Origin: an uncultured Veillonellaceae bacterium | GTDB lineage: Bacteria; Bacillota; Negativicutes; JARBTT01 | Assembly: GCA_963805085.1 (NCBI GenBank) | Contig: CAWDTA010000005.1 | Span: forward strand, 32,001 to 96,000 | Reading direction: 5' to 3' | DNA length: 64,000 nucleotides | In this document: one piece after another, positions 22,045 through 33,208 of the stretch | How positions within the stretch are numbered: the stretch's first letter is position 1 | Layout of the letters: each line of letters opens with the position of its first letter | The notes under the pieces: generated by a model | Databases searched by the model: none | What the model was told of the DNA's origin: nothing | Seen by the model: the letters and a program-made list of their open reading frames with translations, nothing else | Position numbers and translations under genes: made by a program

Positions 22045-22325
22045 CACGCTGATATTAACAGATTTGGATAAGAAAAAATATGTCATGGTTAAGCAACAAG
22101 AGGAAGTCACGATATATAATCTTTCCCTGTTTGATCATCTCAATGAAATAGCTGACGACATTTCATTCGAAGAGTATAGAGACACATTACCTATGCGAAA
22201 TTAGACAAGGAATTATTAGAGATGGGAATCAAACCTAGGAGGATGGATTATTTAAAGTTTGATTGGAAATATATCATAGACAAAGGCTCAACTAGCAGCT
22301 CAAATTGAACTGCCAGTTGAGCCTT
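22045..22325 (+). repeat. Repeat R copy 4 (longest, frameshifted relic plus hairpin)
   Basis: LDKKKYVMVKQQEEVTIYNLSLFDHLNEIADDISFEEYRD/ITYAKLDKELLEMGIKPRR…. Confidence 0.85.
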
Positions 22326-22525
22326 GATTTTTTTATCTTAGCTTAGGAACATCAATTATTGATAAAATTTTATGACAATATTAATATGGGAGCGTGAGCT
22401 TAATGTCAAAAAGAAAATGCCGTAATTGAATTATTTTATCACAAACTTGTATGGAGGTATTCACAAGTAAATTTAGTAAATCGTTGTTAATGATATGAGC
22501 AAAAAAAACGAATTTGACCAAATCT

Positions 22526-22541
22526 TGGCATGGAAAATGCA
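22526..22541 (+). promoter_or_regulatory. Sigma-54 -24/-12 promoter of the PTS-RLP operon
   Basis: TGGCATGGAAAATGCA (GG-N10-GC) 50 nt upstream of IIA; GAFTGA activator encoded downstream. Confidence 0.85.
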
Positions 22542-22591
22542 TTAATAAATGGTTAGAAGTGCACTGGATTTATAAAGAAAGGAGGGATTGG

Positions 22592-23062
22592 ATGTTAAAT
22601 GTAAAGTTGCTAGACCCTGCGTTAATAGTAATTAATATGGATAAGAAAAGCAAGTATGATGTCATGAGAGAGTTGGCGAAATTATTGGTAGAGCAAGAGG
22701 CCGTGAAACCAAGTTACTTGCAGGCACTTGTTGAAAGAGAGGACATATATCCAACGGGATTACAAACTAAAGACATTGGCGTTGCTATACCGCATGCTGA
22801 TGTAAAACATGTATTGAAGCCAAGTATTGCAATTGCTACTATGAAAAATTCAGTGCAGTTTAATTCAATGGCTAATCCTAGTGATACACTTGATGTTAAA
22901 ATGGTATTTATGCTTGCACTAAAAGAACCAAAAAAACAATTGCAACTTCTTCAAGATTTAGTAGTATTGTTTCAATCGTCTGAACTAATAGAAAAAATGC
23001 TTAGGAGTGATGATGCACAAACATTTATTAATGTGGTAAATCAAATAGAACAAAACGGATAA
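22592..23062 (+). CDS. PTS EIIA, galactitol (Gat) family
   Basis: REDIYPTGL, VAIPHAD; ATG 22592 after GGAGGG. Confidence 0.9.
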   Translation: MLNVKLLDPALIVINMDKKSKYDVMRELAKLLVEQEAVKPSYLQALVEREDIYPTGLQTKDIGVAIPHADVKHVLKPSIAIATMKNSVQFNSMANPSDTLDVKMVFMLALKEPKKQLQLLQDLVVLFQSSELIEKMLRSDDAQTFINVVNQIEQNG

Positions 23063-23113
23063 AGAGTAAAACTAAAAAATTATATTAATTAGAAATAGGG
23101 AGGTGCTAGCGAC

Positions 23114-23419
23114 ATGGGAAAAGTAAAAATTATGTGTGTATGCGGAACTGGAATAGCTACGTCTACTGTTGTTAATAATGGAGTGTCTAATATTTGTAAA
23201 AAAAATGATTTCGCATATGATATTATGCAATGCAAAACTCTTGAGGTAAAGTCTAAATTAAATAGTTTTCGTCCAGATTTAATTGTTTCAACTACTCCAA
23301 TTTCTGCTGAGACCAACGTACCTATTATAAATGGAATTGCATTTTTATCTGGTGTAGGTTTGGACAATATTGAACAACAAATTGTTTCTGCATTAAAACA
23401 AACTCTGGGGGTGAAATAA
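23114..23419 (+). CDS. PTS EIIB, Gat family
   Basis: CVCGTGIATSTV P-loop. Confidence 0.92.
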   Translation: MGKVKIMCVCGTGIATSTVVNNGVSNICKKNDFAYDIMQCKTLEVKSKLNSFRPDLIVSTTPISAETNVPIINGIAFLSGVGLDNIEQQIVSALKQTLGVK

Positions 23420-23420
23420 A

Positions 23421-24683
23421 ATGTTAGATATAATCCAATTTATCCTTGGATTAGGTCCGGCTGTTATGATGCCAATTATTATCACTATCTTGGGATTGGT
23501 TTTAGGACAAAGCTTTAGCAAAGCATTTAGAGCGGGTCTTATTATCGGTGTTGGTTTTGTTGGAATAAATATGGTTATTGGGCTGTTAATTAACACATTA
23601 GGTCCAGTAACACAAGCTATGGTTAAAAATCTTGGGGTCGAACTAGATATACTTGATGTTGGTTGGCCTATATCAGCTGCTGTAAGTTTTGGATCGGTAA
23701 TTGTACCAGTAATTATGCCGCTAATACTTTTATTTAATGTATTTTTGTTGGCAATCAATCAAACAAAAACAGCAAATGTTGATATCTGGAATTACTGGCA
23801 AATGCTGTTTTGTGGCGCAATAGTATATCATTCTACAAACCAAAACTGGTATTTAACTATCGCTGCAGTGTTAATTTGTGAGTTTGTAACTTTAAAACTT
23901 GCAGATATAACAGCACCTATGGTAGAAAAATATTTTGGGTTACCCGGTATTTCATTACCACATGTAGGGACCGTTGGGTGGTATCCCGTTGCCTATATCT
24001 TTAATAAGATTTTGGATAAAGTTCCGGGGATAAATAGTGTATATATTGATCAAAAAAAGGTACAAGAAAAATTCGGAATATTCGGAGAACCATTGTTTAT
24101 AGGCCTAGTTCTTGGATCTATATTAGCGATATTGGCTAAATATGATGCAGGGAAAATTTTGACTACTGGCGTTACTTTGGGTGCAGTAATGGTCATTTTA
24201 CCAAGAATGGTAGCAATCTTAATGGAAGGATTAATTCCATTATCTGAGGGGGCAAGAGAATTTTTGAAAAAAAGATTTCCGGGAAGAGAGTTCTACATTG
24301 GCTTAGATACGGCTATTGTAATAGGAAATCCGGCAGTTATGTCGACTGCTATCATAATGATTCCAGTTGCAGTATTATTGTCGTTGGTAGTTCCAGGAAA
24401 TCATTTTCTCCCATTTACAGATCTTGTTATGTTAACATTTATTTTAAGTTTTCCTGTTGCGGTAACGAATGGGAATATATTTAGGTCTATAATTATTAGT
24501 CTGTTAATTGTTCCGCTATGCTTATTAATTGCAACAGATTTTGGACCGGTTCATACAATAATGGGACATGCTGTTGGATTTCAGTTTCCTGAAGGAACGA
24601 CAACGATTAGTAGTTTATATGGAGGTACATTACAAATTCCATGGCTTATTTGGAAACCATTATCAATATTCTTTGGACACTAA
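23421..24683 (+). CDS. PTS EIIC, Gat family
   Basis: DVGWP, NVDIWNYW, YIGLD, multiple TM segments. Confidence 0.92.
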   Translation: MLDIIQFILGLGPAVMMPIIITILGLVLGQSFSKAFRAGLIIGVGFVGINMVIGLLINTLGPVTQAMVKNLGVELDILDVGWPISAAVSFGSVIVPVIMPLILLFNVFLLAINQTKTANVDIWNYWQMLFCGAIVYHSTNQNWYLTIAAVLICEFVTLKLADITAPMVEKYFGLPGISLPHVGTVGWYPVAYIFNKILDKVPGINSVYIDQKKVQEKFGIFGEPLFIGLVLGSILAILAKYDAGKILTTGVTLGAVMVILPRMVAILMEGLIPLSEGAREFLKKRFPGREFYIGLDTAIVIGNPAVMSTAIIMIPVAVLLSLVVPGNHFLPFTDLVMLTFILSFPVAVTNGNIFRSIIISLLIVPLCLLIATDFGPVHTIMGHAVGFQFPEGTTTISSLYGGTLQIPWLIWKPLSIFFGH

Positions 24684-24779
24684 TATGTGAGAATTTTATA
24701 TGAGAAGACGGAGGTGTATCCTCGTCGCATTGATAATAAATGGATACACCTTACTAATTTTAGAAAAGAGGAATAAATT

Positions 24780-25826
24780 ATGCAAGCAATAGTATTTAAA
24801 GGACCTAAAGATTTTGAAATGCAAGAGATTCCGATTCCAGTATGTCCTACGGAAGGCATTTTAGTAAAGATTATAGCGGTGGGGCTGTGTGGATCTGATA
24901 TTCGAACTTTTGATGTTGGACATGGGAAAGTTACTCCTCCACAGGTAATAGGTCATGAAGTTGCTGGGGTAATAGAAGAAATAGGGAAGGGTGTTTCTGG
25001 TTTTTCAGTAGGGGACAAAGTCGCAATCAATCCGATTATTCCTTGTGGTCATTGTGAATATTGCAAAATGGGCTATGGAAACCATTGTAGAACTCTTGAG
25101 TTTTTAGGAACGACTATACCTGGTGGATATGCTCAATATGTGGCAATTCCAAAAGTGGCTTTGGTCAATAATTGTGTAATTAAAATAACTAGCGATTTAC
25201 CACTTGAATATGTTCCATTGGCAGAAACCACAGCTTCTGTAATTTGCGCGCAAAAAAATATGAATGTAACAAAGGGTGATACAGTTGTAATTTTTGGGGC
25301 AGGACCTATTGGTTGTTTGCATGCAGCTATTGCTAAAGCACGTGGAGCAAAAAAAGTAATTATGTCAGAAATCAATGAAACTAGATTGAATATTGTAAGA
25401 AAATTTAAAAGTATTGATGTTTTTGTAAATTCATCACAGAAAGATATTAATGAAGTCATATTGAGTGAAACCGGAAACTTAGGAGCGGATGTTGCTATTG
25501 TTGCTTGTCCGGTAGGAGCAGTCCAAGTACAAGCCATTAATGTGGTGAGAAAAAGAGGTAGAGTATGTTTCTTTGGTGGATTACCAATCAACAATTGTCA
25601 TATTAATCTCAATAGTAATAAAATTCATTATGATGAAATTGCTATTTTTGGTGCATTTGCGTATGATCCGAAGGAATTTATTGAAGCTTTTCATTTAATT
25701 TCAGAAGGAAAGGTACCAGCGGATCAGTTTGTTACGGATATATTGCCACTCAAGGACATTGCTAAAGGAATAGATATTATTAAAAATGGACTGGGTGTTA
25801 AAGTGGTTTTAAAACCTTGGGACTGA
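24780..25826 (+). CDS. Zn-dependent medium-chain (polyol/sugar-phosphate) dehydrogenase
   Basis: LCGSD, GHE, CGHCEYC…C, GAGPIG. Confidence 0.9.
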   Translation: MQAIVFKGPKDFEMQEIPIPVCPTEGILVKIIAVGLCGSDIRTFDVGHGKVTPPQVIGHEVAGVIEEIGKGVSGFSVGDKVAINPIIPCGHCEYCKMGYGNHCRTLEFLGTTIPGGYAQYVAIPKVALVNNCVIKITSDLPLEYVPLAETTASVICAQKNMNVTKGDTVVIFGAGPIGCLHAAIAKARGAKKVIMSEINETRLNIVRKFKSIDVFVNSSQKDINEVILSETGNLGADVAIVACPVGAVQVQAINVVRKRGRVCFFGGLPINNCHINLNSNKIHYDEIAIFGAFAYDPKEFIEAFHLISEGKVPADQFVTDILPLKDIAKGIDIIKNGLGVKVVLKPWD

Positions 25827-25876
25827 GATCTTAACTTTAGGGTTAATTTTTATCAGTAATGAAGGGGGAATGGAAG

Positions 25877-26740
25877 ATGGCAGTTGATTTACACGTGCAT
25901 ACTATAGCGAGTAGTGACGGTGAATTTTCACCTTTAGAGATAGTTAAACTTGCACATGAATATCAACTTCAAGCAATTGCTATAACAGATCATGATACTA
26001 TTGACAGTGTTGATGAGGCTATTTATTTGGGAAAAGAATATAACGTAGAAATTATACCCGGCTGTGAATTTTCTTCGATATATAAAAATAGGTGGCTTCA
26101 TATTTTAGGATATTATATTGATTATCATAATAGCGATCTTATTAGCTTATGTAAAAAAGTAGAGACAGCAAGAGCAAATAATGTTGATGCGCAAATAGTT
26201 AAATTGCGTCAAGCTGGTTTCTATTTGGAAAAGGAAGAAGTTTTAGAGGATAGTTCAATTCCGTTGCCAATTTCTTTTGGAAAAGCTATATTTTTAGATT
26301 CAAGAAATAATGGTAACCAACTTATAGAAAAATATCGGCAAGAGAAAAACGGCATACTTACGTTTTGCCAAGAGTGGTTGATTTATGGACGACCATATAA
26401 TGCTATGCAATATTTTCCGAAGACCGAAGAGGTTATTAAGCTTATATTGCAATGTGGTGGTGTTCCTATTTTGGCACATCCTGGAGCTAGCTTACAAGAA
26501 GGTGAGGATGAATTAATTGTTGGTTTAATAAAGGAAGGGCTTGCTGGAATTGAAGTGTTTACAAATTGGCATAATGAAAATCAAGAAAAGCATTACCACC
26601 GTTTTTGTCGAGATACAGACATGATTGCTACTGCTGGCAGTGATTTTCATGGGAAAATTAAACCCAATATTTCATTTGGGCAGATAAAAAACAATGGGTA
26701 TGATATTGTTGAACTTTTGAAGTCCAAAATACTATTGTGA
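25877..26740 (+). CDS. PHP-domain metal-dependent phosphoesterase (TrpH/YciV-like)
   Basis: DLHVHT..SDG, ITDHD, HILGY, LAHP, GSDFHG. Confidence 0.9.
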   Translation: MAVDLHVHTIASSDGEFSPLEIVKLAHEYQLQAIAITDHDTIDSVDEAIYLGKEYNVEIIPGCEFSSIYKNRWLHILGYYIDYHNSDLISLCKKVETARANNVDAQIVKLRQAGFYLEKEEVLEDSSIPLPISFGKAIFLDSRNNGNQLIEKYRQEKNGILTFCQEWLIYGRPYNAMQYFPKTEEVIKLILQCGGVPILAHPGASLQEGEDELIVGLIKEGLAGIEVFTNWHNENQEKHYHRFCRDTDMIATAGSDFHGKIKPNISFGQIKNNGYDIVELLKSKILL

Positions 26741-26869
26741 TTAAAATAATCTGTACAATATCTCCTCAAATATAATTTCGCTATTGAAAATATTTTCTAT
26801 ATTGATGTTATTTTCTTTTAATGTAAAATAAAAATTGAAGGGACCTTCAATAAGAGGAGCGGTCTACAA

Positions 26870-27847
26870 ATGCAGTCGTCGGTATACGATCAATCTACGT
26901 TTCTAGTATTTAAAGCCGCATATCTTTATTATTTTCAGGATAAACCACAAAATGAAATTGCTGATATATTGAATATATCTATATCAACAGTATCTCGTTT
27001 AATTAGAAAAGCTAAGCAAGATGGGATTGTAGAATTTGTAATTCGGAATCCATATATGGATTGTCTCGAAACAGAAGATCAAATCAAAAATAAGTTTAAT
27101 TTAAGGGATGTAATAGTCGTACCACCGATTAAAGAAATTGGGAACCATTTAGAAACCAAAGCTAATGCAAGAAAACTTGTAGCACTTGAAGGCGCACGAT
27201 ATGTTCAGCGAATTATTACCGAGAATGATGTTTTAGGACTTAGTTGGGGAAAAACAATGTATGATTTAATTCATTACTTAAATCCTTGTCAAAAAGTCAA
27301 TGCCAGTTTTGTTACAATGCATGGAAGTATTTCAGGGTGTCATCCAGATTTAGATGTGCTGGCATTAGGATCGCGGATATCTATGGCTTTTGGTGGACAG
27401 AATTATTCACTTTTAGCAGAAGGGTTAATGAGTAATGAAAAAATAGTGGCTTCTGTAAAAAACGAAAAATATGTCAATAAAATATTTGAAATATTCAAAC
27501 ACATAAGTATATCTTTGACAAGTGTAGGTGCTTTTTTCCCCAATGTAGATTCATTACTTTATAAACAAGGAGGATATCTTCTTGATAGTGAAATTCGTGA
27601 ATTGAAACAGAAAGGTGCAGTAGGTGATATAAGCCTTAGATTTGTTAATAGCCAAGGGAATGAATGCGATACATCCTTTAGAAATCGTACCATTGGAATA
27701 GAGTTAGACCTATTTAAAAAAATCAGAACAAAAATCATGGTTGCTTCTGGAGAATCCAAAGTCCATGCTCTAAAAGGAGTTTTGGCAGGTGGTTTAACTG
27801 ATATATTGATTATTGATTATGCTTTAGGAAAAGCAGTGTTAAATTAG
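26870..27847 (+). CDS. SorC/DeoR-family sugar-binding transcriptional regulator
   Basis: AAYLYY…QNEIA…STVSRLI HTH; GLSWGKT; GAVGDI. Confidence 0.9.
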   Translation: MQSSVYDQSTFLVFKAAYLYYFQDKPQNEIADILNISISTVSRLIRKAKQDGIVEFVIRNPYMDCLETEDQIKNKFNLRDVIVVPPIKEIGNHLETKANARKLVALEGARYVQRIITENDVLGLSWGKTMYDLIHYLNPCQKVNASFVTMHGSISGCHPDLDVLALGSRISMAFGGQNYSLLAEGLMSNEKIVASVKNEKYVNKIFEIFKHISISLTSVGAFFPNVDSLLYKQGGYLLDSEIRELKQKGAVGDISLRFVNSQGNECDTSFRNRTIGIELDLFKKIRTKIMVASGESKVHALKGVLAGGLTDILIIDYALGKAVLN

Positions 27848-27927
27848 GTAAGGGATAGTAGTTAGTTTCGTGATGGGCCCGTCAAAAAACTAACTATTGT
27901 TTCAAAATATAAAAGGGGGTATTCACA

Positions 27928-29247
27928 ATGTATATTGATCCTTTATTTATGCAATTTTCTGATGGTATAGAGGAAGACAAATATGTAATTGCAACTTACT
28001 ATGTGGCAAATGCCAAATCAATGGAAGCTGTTAAATATGCTGCAGCATTAGCTGTTGAACAAACCACAGGTACGTGGATTTCAGTACCTGGCGAAACTCA
28101 TGAGGTAAGAGAAAAACATCTTGGACGTGTAGTTGGTATTTATGAAGTTCCTGCATACTCTGATTCATATCCTGCAGATCTTACTGAAAGACACTTTGTT
28201 TTACGATTGGCATTCCCAGCACATAATTTTGGCGCTCAATTTGCTATGATGTTTACAGCGGTAATTGGAAACATTTCGAGTATGGGAAAATTAAAATTGC
28301 TAGATCTTGAATTTCCTCGTAAATTTTTGAAGGAATTCAAGGGTGCTAAGTTTGGTGTAGAAGGAATACGGAAGCTGTTAGGCGTTTACGACAGACCTTT
28401 AGTAAATACTATGATAAAACCATGTATTGGTTTAAATCCTAAACAAACTGCTGAACTTGCCCATAAAATAGCACTTGGCGGGGTAGATATCATAAAAGAT
28501 GATGAATTAACAGCTAGTCCAGATCATTGTCCTTTGGTAGATAGAGTTAAAGCTGTTATGGCAGCTTTGAAATCTGCTGATGCAGAAAAAGGTGAAAAAA
28601 CGCTTTATACTTTTAATATTACAGATAGAACAGAAAAATTAAGAGAAAATGCTCTTCGCGCAATTGATGCTGGTGCAAATGCTTTAATGGTCAATGCTTG
28701 GCCGATTGGAATGGATGCTTGTAGAATGCTTGCTGAAGATCCTGAAATTAATGTACCTATTCTGTCTCATTGTGATATGCAAGGGGCATTATATGAATCA
28801 CCATGGTCTGGGATGTCTGCTAGTTTGGTTTGTTCGAAGTTACCTCGTCTTGCTGGTCTTGATATGGGGATTGTCTTAAGTCCTTATGGAAAATTCCCAC
28901 TTACAATGGATACATTTATTCAAGCAGGATATGCTTGTTTGACCCCATGGCAGCATATTAAACCAATGATGCCAATGCCTGGTGGCGGGACAACGCAAGG
29001 TCATATTGAAGAGCTTATAAACAAATTTGGCAAGGATGTTATTATAGCTGCTGGTGGTGCAGTAGTAGGACATCCTCAAGGAACTACTGCTGGTGGTAAG
29101 GCATTTAGGCAAGGTATTGATGCGGTAATGAAAGGGCAATCTTTAAAAGATGCTTGTCTAGATAGTAAAAATAAAGAACTCAAATCCGCTATTGATGCTT
29201 GGGGCGTTTACGGAGAAAAGAAAATCTTTGATCTTAAGGCCAAATAA
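27928..29247 (+). CDS. RuBisCO-like protein (form IV)
   Basis: AVEQTTGTW, MIKPCIGL, GGVDIIKDDE, YGKF, GGAVVGHPQG; K177/R295/H327/S379 equivalents replaced; no small subunit or PRK nearby. Confidence 0.92.
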   Translation: MYIDPLFMQFSDGIEEDKYVIATYYVANAKSMEAVKYAAALAVEQTTGTWISVPGETHEVREKHLGRVVGIYEVPAYSDSYPADLTERHFVLRLAFPAHNFGAQFAMMFTAVIGNISSMGKLKLLDLEFPRKFLKEFKGAKFGVEGIRKLLGVYDRPLVNTMIKPCIGLNPKQTAELAHKIALGGVDIIKDDELTASPDHCPLVDRVKAVMAALKSADAEKGEKTLYTFNITDRTEKLRENALRAIDAGANALMVNAWPIGMDACRMLAEDPEINVPILSHCDMQGALYESPWSGMSASLVCSKLPRLAGLDMGIVLSPYGKFPLTMDTFIQAGYACLTPWQHIKPMMPMPGGGTTQGHIEELINKFGKDVIIAAGGAVVGHPQGTTAGGKAFRQGIDAVMKGQSLKDACLDSKNKELKSAIDAWGVYGEKKIFDLKAK

Positions 29248-29258
29248 AATTATAAAAA

Positions 29259-29306
29259 ATAGACAAGGAGAGCCTGGGTCATATACTCAGGCTCTCCTTT
29301 GTCTAT
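29259..29306 (+). terminator. Terminator after RLP
   Basis: atagacaaggagagcctgggt…actcaggctctcctttgtctat. Confidence 0.75.
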
Positions 29307-29689
29307 ACTAATATTAATAAATGTTTATATATGTAGAAATATGTCGAATTTTATTACTTATAATGTTATTATATATATGATAGAAGTACTTAGACAAGAG
29401 GAGCTATAAGGAATAAATAGGTTGTATTTAAATATCGCATAAAAAGATAGAAAATTTTGAATTTATAATAAAATTCAAAAGTGGACAATTATTTGAATAA
29501 AAAATTGCAAGAAGGTTTCATGGCTTTTTACATAGTATAGATGTAAAATTTTTAGTTAAAAACGTTAAATAATAGCAGTATGCTAACCTCAGAATAACCT
29601 CTTTTTCAGTCATTAAAAATGGAATGCAGTTCAATCAAGGTATTCATATTAAATTTGACTATAAGTAATAATTAGGGGGAGAATAAGTC

Positions 29690-32635
29690 ATGGAGAAAAA
29701 AATATCCCAAGTTATAAGTGAGGAAGATAAAAAAAATCCAATGACTGACCAAGAAATTTCTAACAAGTTATATATTAGTCGAAGTAAAGTAAGCAAAATT
29801 AGAAATGCTTTAGAAATACCTGAGGCACAGGAAAGAAGAGAAAATTTACTGCGTGAAGAAATAACAAAAATTATAAATGCAAATTCGGGTATTTCTGAAC
29901 GGCGTTTAACAGTGGAATTAAATAAAGCAGGTTTTCATATATCTAGAAATACTATAGCATCTATAGTAAATAGTATTTCTGATACTTTAGACCTTGCTAA
30001 ATATAAAAAATCAGATTTAGAAGAAAAGTCTAATAATGATTTACATAAGGATATTCAATCAATAGATGCGTTTGCCTCAATGATTGGTTGTAACAAAAGT
30101 TTACGAACAAAAATTGAACAGGCTAAAGCTGCGATTCTTTATCCACCCAATGGGTTACATACCTTAATTATTGGCTCACCAGGAGTTGGAAAAACAGAAT
30201 TGGCCGAAGCAATGTATAAATTTTCTTTAACTTATCAAGAATTAAGTTCAGATAACTATCCGTTTATCACTTTTAATTGCGCTGATTATGCTGAGAATCC
30301 ACAATTGCTTCTAGCACAGCTTTTTGGATATCGTAAAGGTGCATTTACTGGCGCTGAAAGCGATCAAGATGGTTTGGTAACAAAGGCTGATGGAGGTATT
30401 TTATTTCTTGATGAAGTCCATCGTTTGACTTCAAATGGCCAAGAAATGTTGTTTCAACTTATTGATAAGGGCCATTATAGGCGATTAGGAGAAACAAATA
30501 CAGTTCATAAGGCTAAAGTTATGATTATTGCTGCAACGTCTGAAGACATAGAAAAAAGTCTTTTGCTTACTTTTAGACGAAGAATACCAATGGTAATAGA
30601 ACTTCCATTATTGGCTGTACGAACTTTAGAAGAAAGATTAGATATGATTAGGAAGTTTTTTTTTCAAGAAACAAATGTGCTTAATAAAAAAATTATAGTG
30701 ACTACGCATGCTTTACGTATTTTATTGAGTTATAATTGTGTAGGGAATATAGGACAATTACGTTCAGATATTCAATTGTCCTGTGCAAAAGGTTTTTTAG
30801 AATATGTAGCTAGATGTGGTGAAGACGATTCTATCATTATTGATGTTCCAACACTACCTATTCATATTTCAAAAAGTTTATATAATATAGTTTGGGATAG
30901 AGAAAAAGTTAAAAAAATTATTTCAGATGATTTAGTTTTTCTACCTGGTGCTATAATTCCTGAAAAAATAAAAAAAAGCATTTATACATTTTCTAATGAA
31001 ATTTATAAAAATATTGAGGAAGAATACCAAGAATTACAAAAGCAAGGTCTATCTGATGAAATAATCAATCGTATTATTATGGATGCTTTAGAAACTAAAG
31101 TGAAAAAAATAATCAACCAGATTGGAGCAAATAAATATAATTTAGTCACACAAGATTTTAAGGCGATAGTGCGTCCCGAGGTTATTTTGTTAGTAGAAAA
31201 GATGCTTAACATAGTGAAAGCGAAACTAGGAGACTTCGATAATACATTGTTTTATTGTTTAGCAACGCACTTAAATATTTCAATTAATAGAATAAAAAGT
31301 GGTAAGTACAGTTCAACTCTTTGTCTTAATAATGTAAAACAGTATTGTACGCAGGAATATGAAGTAGCTATAGAAATGGCATCTCTGACAAAGCAGTATA
31401 TGGGTATTGATCTACCAGAGGAAGAAATCGGATTTATTGCAATGTATCTGAAAGCTAGTATCAGTAAAGATGTATGCTCTCAGAATACGATTGGAATAGT
31501 TGTTATATCTCATGGGCACGTTGCTCAAGGAATGGTTAGCGTAGCTAATCGATTTTTAGGTGTTGACTTAGTGCAAGCTGTTGAAATGTCACTTGATGAA
31601 AAAACAGAAGATGCTCTTGTAAGAACGATGGAAGTTGTAGCTAAAGTTGATCAAGGAAAAGGTGTTTTATTATTGGTTGATATGGGATCCTTAGATACAT
31701 TTGGAAATCAAATTACATTACAGACAGGAATAGCTACAAGAACTGTTACTAGGACGGATACTTTAATGGTTATTGATGCTATTAGAAAAGTTTTGTTACC
31801 AGAAAATGATCTTGATATGGTTGCTGATTCTTTGATAAAAGAAAAAAGTTTAAAAACATCTCAGTTTGAAGAAAGCAATAGAAGTACAGCAAAAGGATAT
31901 GCCGTAATTTGTTTTTGTTTAACTGGTCAAGGTACTGCCAATTATGTTGCTGATATAATAAGAAAAGAAATTCTTCAAATAGATAAAAATATAAATATTA
32001 TAACAATAGGAGCAATTGATGCAGTGAAGATGACAGAGCAAATTGATGGAATTATAAAAAAAATGAATGTTTTGGCTATCATTGGTTCAATTGATGAAAG
32101 GTATCATGATATTCCTTTCATTTCAGCAGTAGATGTGATAAGGAATGGATCTGAAAATCTAGTTAAGGTAGTTCGTAAGCAATATGAAGAAAGACAGCAA
32201 TATATTGCTAATGGTTTTTATGAGATTTTTAATACGGATCTCATAGAAATCAATAAAGAGGTAAAGAGTAAAAATGAGGCATTAACTTTATTAACAGATA
32301 GACTTGTTAATAAAAAATATGTAACGAATTATTTTATCAAAGGCGTTATGACGAGAGAAAAATTAGGGACAACCTTAATTAATGATTGTTTGGCAATACC
32401 GCATGGATATGGAGAAGATATTATCAAATCGGCAGTCGGAATTTTGGTCTTGAAAAAACCAATTGAATGGTTTGAGGGGAAAATGATTTCTTTAATATTT
32501 ATGTTAGCTCTGAATGAAAAATCAAAGAATGAGTTTCAGCGGATATATAGGATTGTAAATAATTCAGATCTTATTGCACAAATAAAAACTGCCGATAATA
32601 AAGAAGTTATTTTAAATATTTTGAAGAATGGGTAG
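29690..32635 (+). CDS. LevR-type sigma54 enhancer-binding protein (AAA+, PRD, EIIA-Man, EIIB, C-terminal EIIA)
   Basis: GSPGVGKT, FNCADYA, GAFTGA, LFLDEVH, PRD THL, SHG…LVDMGSL, CLTGQG, AIPHG. Confidence 0.92.
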   Translation: MEKKISQVISEEDKKNPMTDQEISNKLYISRSKVSKIRNALEIPEAQERRENLLREEITKIINANSGISERRLTVELNKAGFHISRNTIASIVNSISDTLDLAKYKKSDLEEKSNNDLHKDIQSIDAFASMIGCNKSLRTKIEQAKAAILYPPNGLHTLIIGSPGVGKTELAEAMYKFSLTYQELSSDNYPFITFNCADYAENPQLLLAQLFGYRKGAFTGAESDQDGLVTKADGGILFLDEVHRLTSNGQEMLFQLIDKGHYRRLGETNTVHKAKVMIIAATSEDIEKSLLLTFRRRIPMVIELPLLAVRTLEERLDMIRKFFFQETNVLNKKIIVTTHALRILLSYNCVGNIGQLRSDIQLSCAKGFLEYVARCGEDDSIIIDVPTLPIHISKSLYNIVWDREKVKKIISDDLVFLPGAIIPEKIKKSIYTFSNEIYKNIEEEYQELQKQGLSDEIINRIIMDALETKVKKIINQIGANKYNLVTQDFKAIVRPEVILLVEKMLNIVKAKLGDFDNTLFYCLATHLNISINRIKSGKYSSTLCLNNVKQYCTQEYEVAIEMASLTKQYMGIDLPEEEIGFIAMYLKASISKDVCSQNTIGIVVISHGHVAQGMVSVANRFLGVDLVQAVEMSLDEKTEDALVRTMEVVAKVDQGKGVLLLVDMGSLDTFGNQITLQTGIATRTVTRTDTLMVIDAIRKVLLPENDLDMVADSLIKEKSLKTSQFEESNRSTAKGYAVICFCLTGQGTANYVADIIRKEILQIDKNINIITIGAIDAVKMTEQIDGIIKKMNVLAIIGSIDERYHDIPFISAVDVIRNGSENLVKVVRKQYEERQQYIANGFYEIFNTDLIEINKEVKSKNEALTLLTDRLVNKKYVTNYFIKGVMTREKLGTTLINDCLAIPHGYGEDIIKSAVGILVLKKPIEWFEGKMISLIFMLALNEKSKNEFQRIYRIVNNSDLIAQIKTADNKEVILNILKNG

Positions 32636-33144: not shown

Positions 33145-33208
33145 AAAACGCTACTGTCAAATTTTTCTATCTGTATTAGTGGATAGAAAAATTTGACAGT
33201 AGCGTTTT
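33145..33208. repeat. Perfect 27-bp inverted repeat
   Basis: aaaacgctactgtcaaatttttctatc-N10-gatagaaaaatttgacagtagcgtttt. Confidence 0.85.

Follow-up and report, generated by a model that had tools for sequence, protein, structure and literature searches.

A PTS-linked, sigma54-controlled operon encoding a form IV RuBisCO-like protein of a large uncharacterised clade

A 64,000 nt stretch of DNA from an uncultured Veillonellaceae bacterium (GCA_963805085.1, contig CAWDTA010000005.1, positions 32,001–96,000), referred to here as the window and in whose coordinates features are given, carries between 22526 and 32635 a set of genes that couples a sugar phosphotransferase system (PTS) to a form IV RuBisCO-like protein (RLP). 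This well-delimited operon is a PTS-fed, sigma54-controlled variant of RLP-based catabolism within a large uncharacterised clade of RLPs and would be, as far as literature searches show, the first RLP pathway fed by a PTS. Judged by sequence comparison, the operon probably serves the catabolism of a small polyol or a related sugar, with the RLP as the committed downstream enzyme.

Members of the clade are found widely among anaerobic Firmicutes, gut genera included, and are often mislabelled as methionine-salvage enolases. The clade keeps more of the RuBisCO catalytic machinery than do the nearest characterised RLPs, so that what it catalyses matters for how RLP chemistry gave rise to, or was left by the decay of, carboxylase chemistry. 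Within the clade, the PTS-linked form offers the easiest way in, since the type strains Propionispira arboris DSM 2179 and P. raffinosivorans DSM 20765, both cultured, have the same operon and share with the window a minimal form having only three enzymes, namely a zinc-dependent medium-chain dehydrogenase (MDR), a PHP-family phosphoesterase, and the RLP. With both a PTS and a LevR/sigma54 switch in the operon, screening for induction or growth should reveal its substrate.

The operon and its counterparts at related loci

The window was compared with 83 distinct loci from two one-genome-per-species scans, giving 84 loci in all. In 45 of them, here called the clade, the RLP is at least 59% identical to that of the window; in the other 39, the outer loci, it is 47–56% identical. 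Neighbours were counted within 8 kb of the RLP, with open reading frames (ORFs) clustered, shadow ORFs removed, and the clusters labelled by Pfam and NCBIfam. Three MtnW references were used to root a tree of the 80 full-length RLPs from these loci, in which the PTS-linked members of the clade group together in a single subclade (support 0.999, 10 tips), with both the PTS and a SorC regulator present in 10/10. The close homologues have thus kept the PTS neighbourhood, the loss of which the original prediction for this stretch had regarded as telling against a PTS-coupled pathway. The subclade is marked by a glutamine (Gln285) at the position of RuBisCO H298, where the sister subclade, linked to UPF0261 or FGGY, has threonine. 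Three more PTS-linked loci fall in outer branches, which means that the coupling of PTS and RLP arose more than once.

Among the 45 clade loci, SorC accompanies the RLP in 37 and PF09370 in 19. UPF0261, a family with demonstrated ATP-dependent kinase activity (MarK; PMC12624787), is present in 16, and an FGGY kinase in 11. PTS IIA, IIB, and IIC are each found in 11 loci, HPr in nine and enzyme I (EI) in eight, with LevR in seven, every one of which is PTS-type. An MDR occurs at eight loci, a GlpA-like FAD/2Fe-2S dehydrogenase at nine, its Pyr_redox_2 partner at eight, two PHP families at eight and nine respectively, a class II aldolase-family gene at five, and a 2-hydroxyacid dehydrogenase, HAD-IIA, and Fe-ADH_2 at four each. 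The outer loci have PF09370 (14/39), UPF0261 (10/39), FGGY (12/39), a class-III aminotransferase (10/39), a ComB-like phosphatase (8/39), and a PTS (3/39).

The recurring layout combines a module for phosphorylation with an oxidoreductase, the SorC-RLP pair, and a phosphatase, the modules being swapped for non-homologous equivalents: PTS, UPF0261, or FGGY in the first position, MDR, 2-hydroxyacid, or GlpA-like dehydrogenase in the second, and PHP, HAD, or ComB-like phosphatase in the last. A dehydrogenase is nearly always present, with a family that varies and a type that follows the type of permease. The closest sister RLPs (59–68% identity) have a UPF0261 or FGGY kinase where the subclade has the PTS. 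It had been proposed that the PTS here stands in for a kinase, that the dehydrogenase makes a keto-phosphate, and that the RLP then performs enolate chemistry, and the comparison lends support to this scheme, since the kinases of the sister RLPs occupy the PTS slot and the dehydrogenase is near-constant while its family changes. The kinase-linked members resemble the window in RLP clade, in SorC partner, and in their sequence of phosphorylation, oxidation, RLP, and phosphatase, but they use FGGY or UPF0261/PF09370 where the window has a PTS under sigma54/LevR control, and lie outside the Gln285 subclade.

The accessory enzymes at these loci are similar to xylulokinase, glycerol kinase, glycerol-3-phosphate oxidase, GlpA, glycerol-1-phosphate dehydrogenase, 3-phosphoglycerate dehydrogenase, phosphoglycolate phosphatase, and pentulose-phosphate aldolase/epimerase, and as such resemble enzymes for small polyol, ketose, or acid phosphates. 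All score below the respective cut-offs except for one GlpA-type enzyme adjoining an RLP (553.4 vs 552.8). The GlpA family oxidises next to a CH2-O-P group.

Within the subclade, the permeases are of two subtypes, A1 (420–426 aa) and A2 (480–485 aa), which are only about 30% identical. A1 is always found with an MDR, and A2 with a 2-hydroxyacid or GlpA-type dehydrogenase. On the RLP tree the two subtypes are interleaved and the catalytic pattern of the RLP is constant, which would be consistent with different starting compounds being converted into a single type of substrate for the RLP. The PHP gene is present in 8/10 subclade loci, is preceded by its own sigma54 element in two (L018 and L044), and gives way to HAD or ComB-like phosphatases at other loci; for these reasons the PHP phosphatase, which had previously been listed without a role, is regarded as a genuine member of the pathway.

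The eight genes of the operon, identified from an ORF listing and from Pfam and NCBIfam scans, are each intact and all on the + strand, and agree with the gene content that had been read from the sequence originally. The first encodes a PTS EIIA of the Mtl/Fru/Gat class (22592..23062, 156 aa; PF00359, PTS_EIIA_2, 112 bits), the top NCBIfam match of which is galactitol IIA, below cut-off. It is followed by an EIIB of the Gat/Lac type (23114..23419; PF02302, PTS_IIB), with 61 bits to galactitol IIB against a cut-off of 95, and by a Gat-family EIIC of the short A1 subtype (23421..24683, 420 aa), which matches the full EIIC-GAT profile (PF03611, 313 bits). The EIIC is 75–92% identical to that of other MDR-type loci and about 30% identical to the A2 subtype. 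With 443 bits, it misses the TIGR00827 cut-off of 542, so that galactitol specificity is not implied. The combination of EIIC-GAT, class 2 EIIA, and Lac/Gat-type EIIB is that of a Gat-family PTS, the general components of which, EI and HPr, are encoded elsewhere in the genome (ptsI and ptsH).

The MDR (24780..25826; ADH_N and ADH_zinc_N), a proposed polyol-phosphate dehydrogenase, has the Cys/His/Glu zinc ligands and a four-Cys structural site. It reaches no equivalog cut-off, the best being threonine dehydrogenase with 179 bits (GatD, 128 bits), and its nearest structures are threonine, sorbitol, and xylitol dehydrogenases. The proposed pathway phosphatase (25859..26740; PF02811) is a metal phosphoesterase of the PHP family, similar to TrpH/YciV/Cv1693, which carries HVH as its N-terminal HxH metal motif and has Protein Data Bank (PDB) relatives 3e0f, 9etk, 7ug9, and 2yb1. 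It too reaches no equivalog cut-off, scoring 124 bits against the 3',5'-nucleoside bisphosphate phosphatase model, for which the cut-off is 400. The next gene (26870..27847) encodes a SorC/DeoR-type regulator, expected to sense a sugar phosphate, that has a helix-turn-helix (HTH) and the Sugar-bind domain (PF04198, 179 bits) and is below cut-off for both the Bacillus DeoR model (219 vs 420) and LsrR (117 vs 486). The RLP gene (27928..29247) is next, and the last of the eight (29690..32635) encodes an activator of 981 residues with a Sigma54_activat AAA+ domain, PRD, EIIA-Man, and a C-terminal PTS_EIIA_2. Its GAFTGA motif at residue 217, its PRD and EIIA-Man domains, the sigma54 gene of the genome (rpoN, 436 bits, cut-off 277), and the −24/−12 promoter at its target together make it a LevR-type activator, although it is below cut-off for the DagR model (466 bits vs 1400). 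Its C-terminal EIIA domain, of the Mtl/Gat class, sets it apart from classic LevR.

Scans of ORFs and domains bore out that no methionine-salvage, PRK, small-subunit, or kinase gene is present within the operon. Gat-family EIIA, EIIB, and EIIC with a zinc-dependent MDR are also found in the gat (galactitol) operon of Escherichia coli and in Firmicute pentitol PTS operons, which are not known to need an RLP, PHP, or SorC. The operon in the window differs from gat in that its components fall below the galactitol equivalog cut-offs and in its control by sigma54 and a LevR-type activator.

Elsewhere in the genome of the window there are at least five Gat-type EIIC genes and six genes for LevR-type activators. 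The regions C2:1201943-1211599 and C2:1916623-1934788 contain a LevR/EIIC/MDR set without an RLP and a sugar island in which genes for a 2-hydroxyacid dehydrogenase, a class II aldolase, an MDR, a PHP-like protein, and an EIIC are found together. At C5:24990-26510, about 5.5 kb before the window and about 33 kb upstream of the RLP, is the gene for an FGGY kinase with 53% identity to the one that accompanies the RLP at the loci designated type C; a second copy is at C2:749318-750838. GlpA-like, Pyr_redox_2, and DUF1667 partners were not found in this genome. In five clade loci the RLP is followed by a class II aldolase-family gene, of which a search of the window found no remnant, and the paralogues of this gene in the genome are only 31–40% identical. 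The Peptococcia loci have aldolase-family, SDR, and HAD genes for which neither the window nor its genome has a close orthologue.

The RuBisCO-like protein

The RLP has both large-subunit domains (RuBisCO_large, PF00016, 169 bits; RuBisCO_large_N, PF02788, 42 bits), and its K190, D192, and E193, in the K-D-D-E motif that carries the carbamylatable Lys and the Mg ligands, align with RuBisCO K201, D203, and E204, which places it in the large-subunit superfamily as a form IV protein. At the 19 canonical active-site positions of RuBisCO, it has E44, T49, W50, N115, K164, C166, K190, D192, E193, H281, C282, Q285, I315, K322, G352-354, and G376-377. Fourteen of the 19 are therefore kept (E60, T65, W66, N123, K175, K201, D203, E204, H294, K334, G380, G381, G403, and G404 in RuBisCO numbering) and five are changed (K177 to Cys, R295 to Cys, H298 to Gln, H327 to Ile, and S379 to Gly). 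The full set of 19, including R295 and H327 of the phosphate-2 site, that would mark a bona fide RuBisCO of forms I–III is absent.

This pattern is shared by the 120 closest clusters of homologues. Twelve of the kept residues (E60, T65, W66, K175, K201, D203, E204, H294, K334, G380, G381, and G403) are present in all 120, and N123 and G404 in 119 each. The changes are similarly constant at K177 (Cys, 120/120), S379 (Gly, 120/120), and H327 (Ile, 119/120). The H298 position is Gln in 18 and Thr in 93, and that of R295 is Ser, Pro, Cys, or Thr. From what is established for RuBisCO, the Mg2+/carbamate enolisation centre and the phosphate-1 site appear to be intact and the phosphate-2 site to be lost, which would mean that the substrate is a monophosphate with a head like that of ribulose 1,5-bisphosphate (RuBP). 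Lys at K334 together with E60 and N123 is found elsewhere in the tree described below only in true RuBisCOs and in the OiaX-like clade, the K334 position being Ser in MtnW and Arg in the clade similar to PDB entry 3qfw. Residue 166 (window ~28423-28425) lies in an invariant K-P-C motif beside the equivalent of catalytic K175. The corresponding K177 position is variable in the MtnW clade, and C166 is a candidate for an extra acid/base residue.

The best family and structure match of the RLP is MtnW, the 2,3-diketo-5-methylthiopentyl-1-phosphate enolase of methionine salvage, with 372 bits to the NCBIfam model and 270 bits to 2oek in the PDB, and in several cases JGI and UniRef label members of the clade as MtnW enolase. 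NCBI gives them a generic name only, and the protein atlas has only generic RuBisCO and enolase cluster names for the RLP. The score is below both MtnW equivalog cut-offs (NF007095, 372.3 vs 409; TIGR03332, 321.1 vs 513.6), which the MtnW-clade references P0148 and P0154, used as controls, both pass. Asn115 of the RLP aligns with Lys98 of Geobacillus kaustophilus MtnW, presumably the catalytic general base of that enzyme, and Lys322 stands at a Ser of MtnW. All nine MtnW-clade tips have Lys at the N123 position, against Asn in 119/120 of the closest clusters of the RLP. The genome holds a single RLP and, at 83% completeness by marker genes, has no match to MtnK (TIGR01767) or MtnA (TIGR00512). 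Given the scores, the Asn at the catalytic Lys position, and a genome without MtnK and MtnA, the sequence evidence is that the RLP is not MtnW. Nor does it approach the OiaX model (213.5 bits, cut-off 700) or that for form III RuBisCO (247 bits, cut-off 497).

An exhaustive search found 2202 relatives of the RLP at E ≤ 0.001, the best representative being 57% identical, and more than 120 clusters (at 90% identity) share at least 62% identity with it. A FastTree phylogeny of 119 sequences was made from the RLP of the window, 20 of the 120 closest homologues (every sixth), and 98 of 150 representatives, these being the ones of 385–490 residues, with shorter and longer ones dropped. The clade of the window RLP (23 tips, support 0.997) is nested in an unnamed assemblage of 58 tips (0.883). 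Seven assemblage tips compared with NCBIfam are all below the MtnW cut-offs and reach no equivalog cut-off. The sister of the assemblage (0.80) is a group (0.955) that unites the MtnW clade, with its nine tips, and a clade of short sequences with 3qfw as best PDB match (P0242, 260 bits). If 3qfw is Rhodopseudomonas palustris RLP1, as appears to be the case, this short-sequence clade would be the DeepYkr isomerase group, and it groups with MtnW, apart from the assemblage that contains the window RLP. The RLP is thus outside both the MtnW clade and the one likely to hold the 5-methylthioribulose-1-phosphate isomerases, the two with which clustering would have told against the original prediction. 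The Photo clade (1tel, 1ykw, 2qyg) and the OiaX-like clade (431 bits to OiaX) sit elsewhere in the tree.

Among characterised RLPs, MtnW/YkrW of Bacillus and Geobacillus (2oek, 2zvi) is the best match and is in the same broad branch of the superfamily (0.80). It has, as is proposed here, a substrate with a single phosphate, and its pathway continues with a separate phosphatase, MtnX (PMC6302742), as the RLP is accompanied by the PHP phosphatase. The RLP differs from it in having Asn for Lys98, Lys for Ser at K334, and Glu for Gly at E60, and in its location in an operon with a PTS and a dehydrogenase. The DeepYkr RLPs (Rhodospirillum rubrum; R. palustris RLP1) are 5-methylthioribulose-1-phosphate 1,3-isomerases, acting on a 2-keto 1-phosphate by enediol proton transfers (PMC5893883). 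This reaction type is the one favoured below for the RLP, and Asn at N123 is kept in both; the 3qfw-like clade is, unlike the RLP, shorter, without the T65/W66 stretch, and has Arg at K334. The OiaX pathway, a proteobacterial one, uses a soluble kinase. OiaX itself, the 3-oxo-isoapionate-4-phosphate decarboxylase/transcarboxylase of D-apionate breakdown, is like the RLP fed by dehydrogenase-type and phosphorylation steps (PMC6302742 and PMC10176493). The OiaX-like clade shares N123, K334, and E60 with the RLP, but keeps R295 and H327, which the RLP has lost.

Only four RLP chemistries had been characterised according to a 2023 review: enolase, 1,3-isomerase, decarboxylase/transcarboxylase, and oxygenase (PMC10176493). 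No RLP linked with a PTS, SorC, FGGY, UPF0261, or an erythrulose pathway was found in the literature searched, which left most subscription journals outside its scope. The available text of PMC6302742, PMC13454268, and PMC7895386 is silent on this RLP clade, which their supplementary trees could name.

Promoters, hairpins and candidate operators

The sigma54 −24/−12 element TGGCATGGAAAATGCA (22526-22541, + strand) is located 51 nt before the EIIA start. This start is the ATG at 22592, which is behind AGGAGG; the TTG at 22514 overlaps the promoter and was rejected, and the element consequently falls in intergenic sequence. It is held within a promoter island of 53 nt (22501..22553, + strand), the sole conserved block in comparison with the two Propionispira loci, where the surrounding intergenic spacer has diverged almost beyond alignment. 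The pattern alone is not above chance, with 72 matches in the window at no more than two mismatches against 65 expected, and confidence in the promoter comes instead from the conservation of the island, from a like element before the PTS cluster in 10/14 PTS-type loci, and from the presence of rpoN in the genome. No such element was found before the PTS cluster in L019, L005, L014, and L060, although the flank searched in L019 starts at the first gene of the cluster.

Upstream of the promoter is a terminator-like hairpin with a T-run (22283..22335, + strand), formed by a 21-nt inverted repeat that is 90% complementary (arms 22283-22303 and 22305-22325), which would close the upstream GH43 unit and insulate the operon from it. 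Between the EIIA start (22592) and the RLP stop (29247), the terminator scan found no convincing terminator. Directly after the RLP stop there is a strong hairpin (29259..29306, + strand; −34.4 kcal/mol, z = −8.07, with 0/200 shuffles as stable), which the scan missed because it has no clean T-run and which is the probable end of the transcript. The activator gene starts 443 bp after the RLP stop and is itself followed by a terminator-like hairpin with a 20-bp stem, found in the terminator scan (33153..33200, + strand).

Two gaps within the operon, those between the PHP and SorC genes and between the SorC and RLP genes, are better conserved than the adjoining coding DNA. The first, about 95% identical to Propionispira over roughly 110 nt, contains an internal control region (26802..26850, + strand) with a sigma70-like TTGATG-16-TAAAAT (26802-26829) and the 16-bp palindrome TTGAAGGGACCTTCAA (26835-26850). 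The SorC-RLP gap holds a second palindrome, TGATGGGCCCGTCA (27871..27884, + strand), which forms part of a longer conserved hairpin and lies 57 nt ahead of the RLP start. The two palindromes match at 11/14 core positions and are unique in the genome, and may be SorC operators. With 19 pairs and zero compensatory changes among the only three sequences compared, the hairpin could be either an RNA element or a DNA operator. Of all 84 loci, the window and the two from Propionispira are the only ones with exact intergenic copies of the palindrome motif, and a SorC operator for the whole clade is accordingly not definable.

The original prediction took the genes to form a single operon. The lack of any terminator found from 22592 to 29247 is in keeping with this, but SorC-RLP has its own conserved sigma70-like promoter and palindromes, and so may be transcribed alone as well as by read-through.

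Proposed pathway, alternatives and neighbouring sequences

In the pathway proposed, the Gat-type PTS, with the general EI and HPr, would import the substrate and phosphorylate a terminal hydroxyl. The zinc-dependent MDR would then oxidise the carbon adjoining the phosphate ester, giving a 2-keto-3-hydroxy 1-phosphate that corresponds to the C1–3 head group of RuBP. This monophosphate would be bound by the RLP at its Mg2+/carbamyl-lysine centre, where abstraction of the C3 proton would generate a 2,3-enediolate, and reprotonation of the enediolate would complete an isomerisation or tautomerisation that shifts the carbonyl, to a product that could feed the pentose-phosphate or triose pool. Finally, the PHP enzyme would act on the product or on a side product, hydrolysing a phosphate ester. 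Expression would be switched on at the sigma54 promoter by the LevR-type activator, under PTS phosphorylation control, and SorC, sensing a sugar phosphate, may additionally gate SorC-RLP through the two palindromes. Reprotonation is tentatively favoured as the likeliest fate of the enediolate, since the characterised clades nearest to the RLP, those of the MtnW enolase and the DeepYkr 1,3-isomerase, have reactions of this kind.

Several observations weigh against this proposal. A plain isomerase gives the conserved phosphatase no necessary role, and the combination of K334, E60, and N123 speaks for C-C chemistry more than for simple proton transfer. GatD and other known polyol-phosphate dehydrogenases carry out their oxidation at a distance from the phosphate and are not known to require an RLP, and the regiochemistry of the MDR is not readable from its sequence. 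The promoter-like region belonging to SorC-RLP may mean that co-induction with the PTS genes is not assured, and the 83% completeness of the genome weakens the absence of mtnK and mtnA.

Next in likelihood to isomerisation, if rather improbable, is that within the same pathway frame, and with only the fate of the enediolate different, the RLP is a decarboxylase or other C-C-cleaving enzyme, similar to OiaX, with a 3-oxo acid-sugar phosphate or else a keto-sugar phosphate as its substrate. This would account for K334, E60, and N123 being kept in 119–120 of 120 homologues, when Lys at K334 is otherwise found in the tree only in RuBisCO and OiaX-like proteins, which is the strongest point for this reading and for the carboxylase one below. 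The 2-hydroxyacid dehydrogenase of sister PTS loci, which resembles 3-phosphoglycerate dehydrogenase, would fit acid-sugar phosphates, and the recurring phosphatases, which resemble phosphoglycolate and 2-phospho-acid phosphatases, would fit small phospho-acid products. However, the score against the OiaX model is far below its cut-off, the OiaX-like clade branches elsewhere in the tree, and the galactitol-like permease and polyol-type dehydrogenase suggest a neutral polyol, which has no carboxylate to lose.

Alternatively, SorC-RLP may be a self-contained module of two genes that lies beside an ordinary polyol PTS operon, with a substrate unrelated to PTS import. SorC-RLP is indeed the most conserved pair across the clade loci, with its own conserved promoter-like region and palindromes, and paralogous sets of LevR, Gat-EIIC, and MDR without an RLP are present in the same genome. 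Against this, the PTS-linked RLPs are one clade with a private Gln285, and the PTS has been kept in all of its members across several bacterial families; the terminator scan gave none between PHP and SorC; and if the neighbours had no bearing on the RLP, it would be difficult to account for kinases and dehydrogenases filling the same slot in sister clades. Such an arrangement is decidedly improbable.

A genuine carboxylase acting on a ketose 1-monophosphate is harder still to credit. The residues that serve enolisation and CO2 addition do not vary (K201, K175, H294, K334, E60, N123, and the Mg ligands), the hosts are anaerobes, and the layout of kinase, C-C enzyme, and phosphatase echoes the kinase-carboxylase-phosphatase route for acetovanillone (PMC12624787). 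Against these stand the changes at K177, H327, R295, H298, and S379, and the catabolic context. Moreover, no RLP has been shown to carboxylate, the review of 2023 giving proton abstraction, isomerisation, decarboxylation, and oxygenation (PMC10176493). In a somewhat broader form, in which the clade would perform RuBisCO-type C-C chemistry on a ketose 1-monophosphate, be it carboxylation with cleavage or a closely related cleavage, the idea is still improbable. In its favour, the second phosphate site alone has gone, and the phosphatases that recur are like those for small phospho-acids. In the carboxylating variant, ketose 1-phosphate, CO2, and H2O would give 3-phosphoglycerate and a shorter aldonic acid. 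If true, this would be a hitherto unknown CO2-dependent route of polyol breakdown in anaerobes, with the first carboxylating members outside forms I–III.

That the RLP is MtnW, placed beside the PTS operon by chance, is barely credible in spite of the best matches and some of the names, in view of the missed cut-offs, the Asn at Lys98, the separate clade with its generic NCBI names, the lack of MtnK and MtnA in the genome, and the PTS and SorC adjacency kept throughout the subclade. A link to autoinducer-2 (phospho-DPD), considered from the likeness of SorC to LsrR and of FGGY to LsrK, is unsupported, both the LsrR score already given and that for the AI-2 kinase (216 vs 528) being below cut-off.

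At other loci, there are arrangements that depart from that of the window. In Caproiciproducens (L033, L037) two RLPs are a few kb apart, in the order RLP, FGGY, an unknown gene of 280 aa, SorC, RLP, GlpA-like, Pyr_redox_2. Among the outer loci, L064, L066, L072, L076, L077, L080, L087, L090, and others, from Chloroflexota and an archaeal metagenome-assembled genome, have a class-III aminotransferase and FGGY beside the RLP, which hints at an amino-polyol or amino-sugar variant. The Asgard archaeal loci have other neighbours again (clusters c56, c57, and c102). In L018, L019, L020, L021, and L044, which are among the larger PTS-type clusters, there are repeated HPr genes and a DUF2148 ferredoxin-domain protein 3' of LevR; in L019 and L044 the dehydrogenase is also separated from HPr by a C_GCAxxG_C_C redox protein.

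Upstream of the operon in the window is a hemicellulase island with two GH43-CBM6 genes, a 160-aa piece of an alpha-galactosidase, a ricin-lectin piece, GH10, and GH43, several of which are fragments. Between 18607 and 20584, the alpha-galactosidase piece covers profile positions 1–133 of 284 and is followed, in another frame, by the 113-aa ricin-lectin piece; the GH10 ORF is without the first 65 profile positions. The island may therefore be partly decayed, the fragments possibly being pseudogenes. Its adjacency had been taken as a hint of a plant-derived substrate, but it is not conserved: homologues of the glycoside hydrolase genes of the island are present in none of the flanks of 13 related loci, and the island is set apart from the operon by the terminator-like hairpin at 22283..22335.

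The flanks of the P. arboris operon have no glycoside hydrolases, and contain instead a transposase-like HTH ORF and carotenoid-type, CHAD, and thiamine-salvage genes. The transposase-like ORF, of 156 aa and with HTH_32, HTH_33, and HTH_23, is upstream in both Propionispira loci (L016:400-870 and L015:1073-1543). Its presence in both of these, together with the different flanks in the window, suggests that the operon moves as a cassette.

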